Of a stretch of 6,173 nucleotides of DNA, positions 1,415 through 2,341 are shown in pieces. Position 1 is the first letter of the stretch; every line of letters begins with the position of its first letter. The notes below the pieces were generated by a model, which saw only the letters and a program-made list of their open reading frames with translations, did no database searches and was not told the origin of the DNA. A program made the translations under genes and the position numbers. The stretch lies in the IMG/VR virus record IMGVR_UViG_2671180809_000008; one strand, 5' to 3'. This DNA comes from a virus. Its lineage: Duplodnaviria; Heunggongvirae; Uroviricota; Caudoviricetes.

Positions 1415-1561
1415 TTATACCTGCGATACGTTATACCATGTTCCGTTAATTAACTTTTGTATTGGTCTGAATACTGCCGGATCATCACCATCGACTTCAC
1501 CGATAATACCAAGCCCCGTGATTACATGGCCTGATTTTTCATACATCACGCCTTTCTTCAT
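1415..1561 (-). pseudogene. Detached C-terminal 48 codons of the alternative tail-fibre gene, downstream of an in-frame amber
   Basis: ATG at 1561-1559 is in the same frame as the ORF at 1565-2341 and is separated from it by TAG (1567-1565) plus one codon. It encodes [48 protein letters not shown], which aligns with the C-terminus of the + strand tail-fibre part. Confidence 0.55.
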
Positions 1562-1564
1562 GGT

Positions 1565-2341
1565 CTAAACAACTCGTGTGCCAAGTCTGACATCTCTCAC
1601 ATAGCGGGAATCAAAGTTACCGTAATCCGAGGGATTAACACGTCCCGTAATATTTATGGTTTTATTACTTTGAATGCTTCCGGAGACAAAGCGCATAACA
1701 TGGACGTTATTAGCATAAACATCCAGATTACCATCGCCTTTTTGTTTAAAGCCCGTGTCATTATCACCCAATACAATCGAATTACCGCCAAGAGCACTGG
1801 ATGTTCCGATACCCAGTGCACCATTCAGTTGACCACCAGATAACGGCAGTGCACCAACATCTCCTGCTGAAGGTTTTCTGGTGGTGTAAAATTCGGACCA
1901 GTCGGCTTCAAAACCATAACCATCACGGGCTGAACGATAAAAAATACCGCCATTTTTATAATTAATCCGAAACTGAGCTGCAGGACAACTTCCTTCTCCC
2001 ATATAAAAATGAATAATTAACGTTGATGCACCACTAATAGTTGCGTTATAGGCTCCGCTACTCCAGTTCCATCCAACTGCTTTATCATTCGCAACGGTGC
2101 TTCCTGTTTTCCCTAAGGCAAACGCACCAACATGACTTGCTTTTAATGTGATATCGGAGGAACCATCAAAAGCCACATTGCTTATTTTCCTGGCAGTTTT
2201 TAATTTTGCAGCTGTAGAAGCATTGCCGGATAGTTCACCAGAAAGGCCACCGCTGAATGTTTGTCGATTAGTCCAGGTATTCGCTGTACTGAGTAACGGT
2301 ATTTTCTCCCCGCTTGTGCCGAGTTCTCGTAAACCGAGGTT
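1565..2341 (-). CDS. Side tail fibre protein, alternative variable part (Sv'); no start codon of its own and ends at an in-frame TAG
   Basis: The frame is open on the - strand from the crossover site (stop at 2344-2342) down to TAG at 1567-1565. It is Gly/Ser/Asn-rich like fibre proteins. Its end ...YVRDVRLGTRVV parallels ...[12 protein letters not shown] in the + strand copy. It would be expressed only after inversion fuses it to the constant fibre part. Confidence 0.7.
   Translation of the reverse strand, partial: NLGLRELGTSGEKIPLLSTANTWTNRQTFSGGLSGELSGNASTAAKLKTARKISNVAFDGSSDITLKASHVGAFALGKTGSTVANDKAVGWNWSSGAYNATISGASTLIIHFYMGEGSCPAAQFRINYKNGGIFYRSARDGYGFEADWSEFYTTRKPSAGDVGALPLSGGQLNGALGIGTSSALGGNSIVLGDNDTGFKQKGDGNLDVYANNVHVMRFVSGSIQSNKTINITGRVNPSDYGNFDSRYVRDVRLGTRVV

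Follow-up and report, generated by a model that had tools for sequence, protein, structure and literature searches.

An amber codon in the silent arm of a decaying invertible tail-fibre segment of Shigella sonnei

The stretch of DNA analysed here, hereafter the window, is 6,173 nucleotides long and carries a lambdoid prophage remnant that adjoins an ompW fragment and trpA, and whose related loci include gpJ and Lom. Over bases 1-2755 and 4696-6173 it is 100% identical to several complete genomes, the amber codon discussed below included, which marks the window as a draft Shigella sonnei scaffold. Its left edge is the terminal inverted repeat of an IS element (1-32; the reverse complement begins TGAGGTAGCC), followed on the + strand by the 3' remnant of a fibre arm (33-321), which the element has cut to 96 codons, and by the Tfa cognate to that arm (323-850; Pfam Caudo_TAP, E = 7.9e-37). 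The "104-aa ORF" called at 7-321 starts inside the IS sequence. Facing these genes on the - strand are an intact second Tfa (879-1412; Pfam Caudo_TAP PF02413, E = 4.8e-34) and the fibre arm to which it is cognate, this Tfa beginning two bases past the fibre stop. The - strand arm begins inside a 26-bp Gin/Pin-type crossover site (TTCTCGTAAACCGAGGTTTTAGATAA, + strand, 2324-2349), and beyond the site lies a serine invertase remnant of 60 codons (+ strand, 2404-2586; Pfam Resolvase PF00239, profile positions 2-69 of 145). The amber codon falls in the arm that is silent in this invertible tail-fibre segment of the Gin/Pin type, and in the orientation found in the window that arm has neither a promoter nor a constant part.

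Between the two stretches shared with the complete genomes, window 2756-3739 holds an N-terminal (LRR) fragment of ipaHe with its upstream region, which starts exactly at the single n at base 2756 and ends at the point where the conserved C-terminal half of ipaH would begin. An EIEC ipaHe-methyltransferase locus (L035) is collinear with block 2757-4643, which the complete S. sonnei genomes do not have at this site. Probably the scaffold joins two paralogous prophage ends into a chimera; an ipaH gene as part of the locus was considered and rejected, chimerism of the scaffold being the most likely source. On either side of the N-run at 4644-4695 stands a nearly identical copy of ~77 bases from a tfa-fragment sequence, which suggests a scaffold gap that was left unclosed or was over-lapped.

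The crossover sequence, which we take to resemble the Mu gix site, matches once in the window against an expectation of zero, and it is the only such site left there: no second, inverted site was found in the window, the left end of which is the IS end at 1-32. Related loci do have the partner site (e.g., L007, L010, L011 and L014). In one of the related loci (L005) an rve-type transposase gene (7594-8750) adjoins the position that matches window base 1, and the Pfam domains of this neighbouring transposase point to the IS3 family for the element at 1-32. Loci of the 53G type, which encode a 918-aa fibre, match the window only from base 33, and in loci of the window type the transposase lies directly beyond base 1. 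The IS has cut off the arm on the expressed side and removed the left crossover site together with the constant part, which locks the segment in one of its two orientations (state A, below). In the window the amber arm faces a dead invertase, unjoined to a constant part and promoterless, and is not expected to be expressed.

Death of the local enzyme is evident from its reading frame, and no intact adjacent serine invertase was found in the window. The remnant runs into a TGA at codon 61, where an intact relative (L057) has Trp and reads ...VVWKLDRLGRS..., and into another at codon 65 (Arg), both within window 2584-2598, and past these stops the frame fuses to a tfa 3' fragment. Since the E. 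coli relatives have an invertase gene cut down to these same 60 codons, its decay predates S. sonnei. As the 5' 180 bases of the invertase gene are retained, a Fis-dependent enhancer could survive in them.

Translation of 2350-1415 shows that bases 2341-1415 of the - strand form a single reading frame whose sole interruption is the TAG at 1567-1565. The upstream arm contributes 258 sense codons (2341-1568), and after the TAG follow ACC, an ATG (1561-1559), 47 more codons and a TAA (1417-1415); the ORF listing accordingly gives two pieces in the same frame, 1565-2176 (203 aa from the first GTG) and 1415-1561 (48 aa). The first-pass annotation had placed the end of the - strand fibre ORF at this TAG, with coordinates that prove exact, and had remarked that the frame resumes one codon later with residues resembling the C-terminus of the + strand fibre. 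This resemblance is borne out: the 48 residues match the C-terminal end of the + strand fibre ORF (7-321) at 19/41 identities (E = 3e-9), far beyond chance, and the alignment spans the shared 12-residue C-terminal motif. The 48-codon ORF with its TAA (- strand, 1415-1561) is a stranded fibre 3' end containing most of a C-terminal module. The amber removes the last 50 of the arm's 308 residues, and the frame is no longer open to the conserved C-terminal end.

One base separates the stop from glutamine, a C-to-T change of CAG on the coding strand, that is, G-to-A at + strand base 1567. In a DNA alignment of four sequences the window's TAG stands opposite CAG in two E. coli prophages (L001 and L002) and in gpH of Yersinia phage L-413C, and over the 260 bases round the stop the mean identity to these three intact fibre genes, which read straight through, is 97%. 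Over window 1380-2355 the nearest complete E. coli genomes are 98.6-98.7% identical, and the E. coli prophages with CAG stand at 98.7-98.9% identity. In these genomes no stop interrupts the annotated tail-fibre gene to which the arm belongs, a long one of 2,805 bases in OZ040035 (L001) and one of 1,329 bases in NCTC86 (L002). Proteins agree with the DNA: RLGTRVV occurs in 31 of the 120 best protein-cluster representatives, and all 31 go on with Q and ~49 further residues, ending 54 residues past the RLG motif. The sole representative to stop after RLGTRVV (P0003, 100% identical over 83% of the query) is named Shigella sonnei. Among 23 IMG/VR contigs matched by a pattern that left the codon free, 17 have CAG and six have TAG, and the tail after CAG is identical in L036, L038, L044, L047 and L051-L053. 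Alignment with intact fibre genes, which had been proposed as the way to learn which sense codon belongs at 1565-1567, returns CAG (Gln) in each, and as every intact homologue examined has this codon and continues for ~50 further residues to the conserved end, the earlier reading of the TAG as a nonsense mutation, not a natural gene end, is upheld.

Compared with its E. coli relatives the arm has 7-8 codon differences in 308, with 0-1, synonymous, located 3' of the stop (approximate counts that ignore an indel), and it carries no other disabling change. A single lesion with so few differences beyond it fits a recent event. The S. sonnei arm also reads FYTTRKPS where E. coli has FYTTTRKPS (window ~1877-1870, - strand), an in-frame 3-base indel that leaves one Thr fewer.

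The first-pass annotation had left open whether the stop was a pseudogenising event or a base-call error. Under the latter, the true genome would read CAG and the stop would be an artefact of a draft assembly, and the window is indeed a poor draft, with its single n at 2756, its N-run at 4644-4695 and its probably chimeric ipaHe insert. The same TAG is, however, present in several complete genomes that are 100% identical to the window over 1-2755. In a public assembly collection the exact 203-aa ORF occurs in 2,308 blocks and the 48-aa ORF in 2,201, among them many independent complete genomes with chromosomes above 1 Mb, including 53G (HE616528.1) and Ss046. Among the source names of the ORFs are "putative bacteriophage tail protein [Shigella sonnei Ss046]" and "putative tail fiber protein (GpH) [Shigella sonnei]", and at least 1,000 contigs carry each. 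The TAG was also found in 10/10 genomes fetched through the neighbouring Tfa protein, a route chosen so as to avoid selecting on the stop itself, and in the six IMG/VR contigs mentioned above. An error, whether of base calling or of assembly, is exceedingly improbable in the face of these data, and the TAG allele is real. Only the pseudogenising half of the earlier either/or stands; the other falls to the ~2,200-2,300 public blocks with an identical TAG.

The intact allele is also present under the species' name. A 253-aa ORF with a GTG start and Q at the site occurs in 47 blocks and is named Shigella sonnei by NCBI (CSQ19286.1 and others); blocks are not isolates, and the resulting ratio of ~98:2 TAG to intact is therefore rough. 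Outside the species we searched with a 55-mer centred on base 1567, such that every 28-base seed must span that base. The TAG version had no matches in complete RefSeq E. coli genomes, a collection that does not include Shigella, and the CAG version matched six complete E. coli genomes. Neither an exact TAG 32-mer nor a degenerate pattern matched any of the GTDB species representatives, among which S. sonnei probably has none of its own.

Within S. sonnei the two alleles can be compared over window 33-2755, where bases 727, 1567 and 2604 define three haplotypes: C, G and T in CAG carriers (L053 and L059-L066), C, A and T in the 53G type (L007 and L058), and A, A and G in the window type. From the 53G-type allele, L053 and L060-L066 differ at a single base, 1567, in 2,651-2,723 bases, and L059 shows the same single difference over 2,490 bases. 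Eight of these nine near-isogenic CAG contigs were fetched through the protein that NCBI names Shigella sonnei; the ninth, L053, would be of the same origin, judging by its identity to the named contigs L059-L066. Only one base in as many as 2,723 separates the alleles, and the stop arose as one + strand G-to-A transition within the S. sonnei radiation. The intact CAG allele is ancestral and TAG derived. Most sequenced isolates now have the stop, and the lineage of the window later gained two SNPs (727 C to A and 2604 T to G). Base 1567 G/A and the linked SNPs at 727 and 2604 mark sub-lineages of S. sonnei, a series of three steps that could be used for lineage typing.

How the derived allele came to predominate can be read in two ways. 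It may be that inactivation of the arm was positively selected, for example against a costly or immunogenic surface-active fibre, and TAG does far outnumber the intact allele (2,308 against 47 blocks). S. sonnei is clonal, however, and in a recent clone any early mutation can rise to high frequency without selection. The surrounding locus moreover displays unselected decay, with two stops in the invertase, IS insertions and tfa fragments. We therefore regard positive selection as unlikely, and infer that the allele was fixed by drift in a prophage no longer under selection, drift in a recent clone being the simpler account of the spread. The part of PMC5447701 that cites Holt et al. 2012 supports the view of S. 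sonnei as a recent clone.

The same distribution bears on whether the gene might be expressed conditionally, with a suppressor tRNA or programmed readthrough carrying translation past the amber. Suppressors of the supE type insert glutamine at amber codons, and a glutamine-inserting suppressor would restore the ancestral residue exactly. However, the stop is conserved in no homologue outside the S. sonnei lineage, a tRNA scan found no tRNA genes in the window, which also counts against readthrough, and there is no sign that wild S. sonnei has a suppressor. We consider conditional expression of this kind hardly credible.

What the truncation costs can be judged from the region it removes. The arm of L001 designated A and the arms of the ST131 strain EC958 are >98% identical to the window arm up to DVRLG, and past that motif they switch to an unrelated module (SQQYYG...WYNVASV) and a different Tfa. 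The Tfa of the amber arm is about 55-70% identical to the Tfas that stand behind other C-terminal modules, and the L001 arm that keeps the window's module keeps its Tfa as well, at 98.9% identity. Module and Tfa co-vary, so the C-terminal 54 residues form a module that is exchanged together with its chaperone, and the amber is the fifth codon of this module, four codons after DVRLG. Base 1581 is a sharp recombination boundary at which the C-terminal fibre module and Tfa are swapped as a unit. In about 390 E. coli genomes, ST131 included, the match to the window covers only what lies to the right of this base, up to DVRLG.

Structural comparison places the module at the extreme tip of a known fibre. 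Pfam gp37_C (PF12604) matches arm residues 78-153, and the arm as a whole matches Mu tail-fibre chains (8JU3, E = 9e-55; 5YVQ chain A, E = 5e-16). Residues 231-306 align with residues 424-502 of the 504 in the 5YVQ chain, the motif RP.QK.I.G.WYN included; 5YVQ is the crystallised fibre-chaperone complex of phage Mu, and the module is thus a homologue of the very end of fibre protein S. A monomer model of an intact homologue was modest overall (pLDDT 69.5, pTM 0.34), and we drew on it solely for the secondary structure of its final 57 residues; it has five predicted beta-strands after RLG, with the Gln in the second, and the block has a pLDDT of 71-87. Foldseek likewise placed 8JU3 and 5YVQ at the top, at low TM-scores of 0.20-0.33. 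According to the passages of PMC7289586 and PMC9608196 that cite North et al. 2019, Tfa proteins are needed for such fibres to fold, and Mu Tfa remains bound at the fibre tip. Loss of the module should then prevent chaperone-assisted folding of the tip and, with it, receptor binding. Because four of the five predicted strands of the module are lost and the module is paired with Tfa, we infer that the truncated arm cannot fold into a working tip and is likely non-functional.

The silence of the arm in the window does not extend to every strain. In state A, found in 53G and L007, the constant part carries the other arm, as a 918-aa fibre, and the amber arm faces the invertase remnant. In state B (CP026802, CP044151, L010, L011, L014 and L034) the amber arm continues the constant part in frame, and the fused product is 875 aa long, with the 48-aa ORF following it; a CAG carrier in state B has a 925-aa fibre gene. 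The crossover half-sites are exchanged between the two states, which points to site-specific inversion rather than homologous recombination. As both states occur among TAG carriers that share the invertase remnant, flipping must have outlived the local invertase, through an enzyme with its gene elsewhere. In UGZB01000001.1 (L009 and L010) the locus is present at both overlapping ends of the sequence, at an offset of 4,934,551 and in opposite orientations, which hints that the segment was inverting in trans in a single culture. With inversion still going on among TAG carriers, the silence of the amber arm is not permanent in every strain. A precedent exists for inversion of a segment by an enzyme other than its own, as PinQ flips the e14 P segment in trans (PMC12529663).

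One IMG/VR contig that has the TAG and is in state B (L057) encodes an intact Gin/Pin-type invertase of ~190-200 aa (4539-5144, - strand) with a second crossover site at ~5181-5206. Both lie directly beside a methyltransferase gene and next to a tape-measure gene. This invertase is a candidate for the trans-acting enzyme, or else a site-specific rearrangement involving two prophages may have left this arrangement behind.

Continued inversion also raises the question of whether the split gene might still do something. The truncated fibre and a re-initiated 48-residue peptide could in principle reassemble, or a truncated Stf, once flipped on, could have a role in the host. An ATG starts four bases after the stop codon, the 48 codons that follow carry no further damage, the segment still inverts in TAG carriers, and a chimeric Stf from a cryptic prophage has been reported to block T2 adsorption after inversion in trans by PinQ (PMC12529663). 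That ATG, however, is an ordinary Met codon of the intact gene, internal in every intact homologue, and reading the sequence before it we see no good Shine-Dalgarno motif; the absence of secondary damage is what a recent mutation would leave in any case. The arrangement is moreover limited to one clonal lineage in which the intact allele is ancestral, and the arm in the window is without a constant part or promoter in a locus locked by the IS. A functional split gene is accordingly very unlikely. A version in which the 875-residue fibre, flipped on in trans, with or without the 48-residue peptide, would be active in the host, for example by blocking a phage receptor as is reported for the chimeric StfE2 of e14, is just as improbable. 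Its corollary, that the stop would have been kept since it changes the activity, and not since the gene is dead, we would give no better odds.

With a probability of roughly 95%, we read the amber as a genuine inherited nonsense mutation in the silent invertible arm of a decaying prophage, its spread probably owed to drift and the arm's function probably lost. The result is an ordinary pseudogene, a case of ordinary gene decay that calls for no new mechanism. Both halves are already known, since public annotation has listed them as two ORFs from the Ss046 genome onwards, and the biological weight of one more lesion in a decaying Shigella prophage is minor. For annotation, the 203-aa (or 875-aa) and 48-aa ORFs should be merged as one pseudogene. 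The more interesting by-product is the segment itself, which has no working invertase yet is found in both orientations, implying inversion in trans.

Among known systems, the segment is most readily set beside the invertible fibre loci of Mu (G/Gin), P1 (C/Cin) and e14 (P/Pin), with which it shares two opposed fibre 3' arms, each with its own tfa. As in the Din family generally, a 26-bp site lies at the junction of arm and invertase, the recombinase gene belongs to the resolvase family, and both orientations occur with exchanged half-sites. As in Mu, the fibre arm is homologous to S and S' (8JU3 and 5YVQ). In contrast to Din switches, the invertase in the window is a 60-codon remnant with two stops, the second site has been lost to an IS and one arm carries an amber codon; and in contrast to Mu and P1, the host element is a lambdoid prophage remnant. 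Having neither an intact invertase nor a second site, the segment in the window is a degenerate relic of a Din-type switch. Another likeness is with the tail fibre gpH and its assembly protein gpG of the P2-like phage L-413C, whose arm is 88% identical at the DNA level and has the same C-terminal end, but whose gpH is intact at 913 aa, belongs to a viable phage and, in its record, lies outside an invertible segment. The StfP/StfE segment of e14, together with PinQ of prophage Qin (PMC12529663), offers a parallel for a cryptic-prophage fibre segment flipped by a distant recombinase; unlike the window, e14 has both arms open, and one chimeric product with a reported defence function. In its mode of decay, finally, the locus resembles the pseudogenes of Shigella prophages and those driven by IS elements, a nonsense change in a non-essential prophage gene amid IS insertions and gene fragments, of which it is a typical case.
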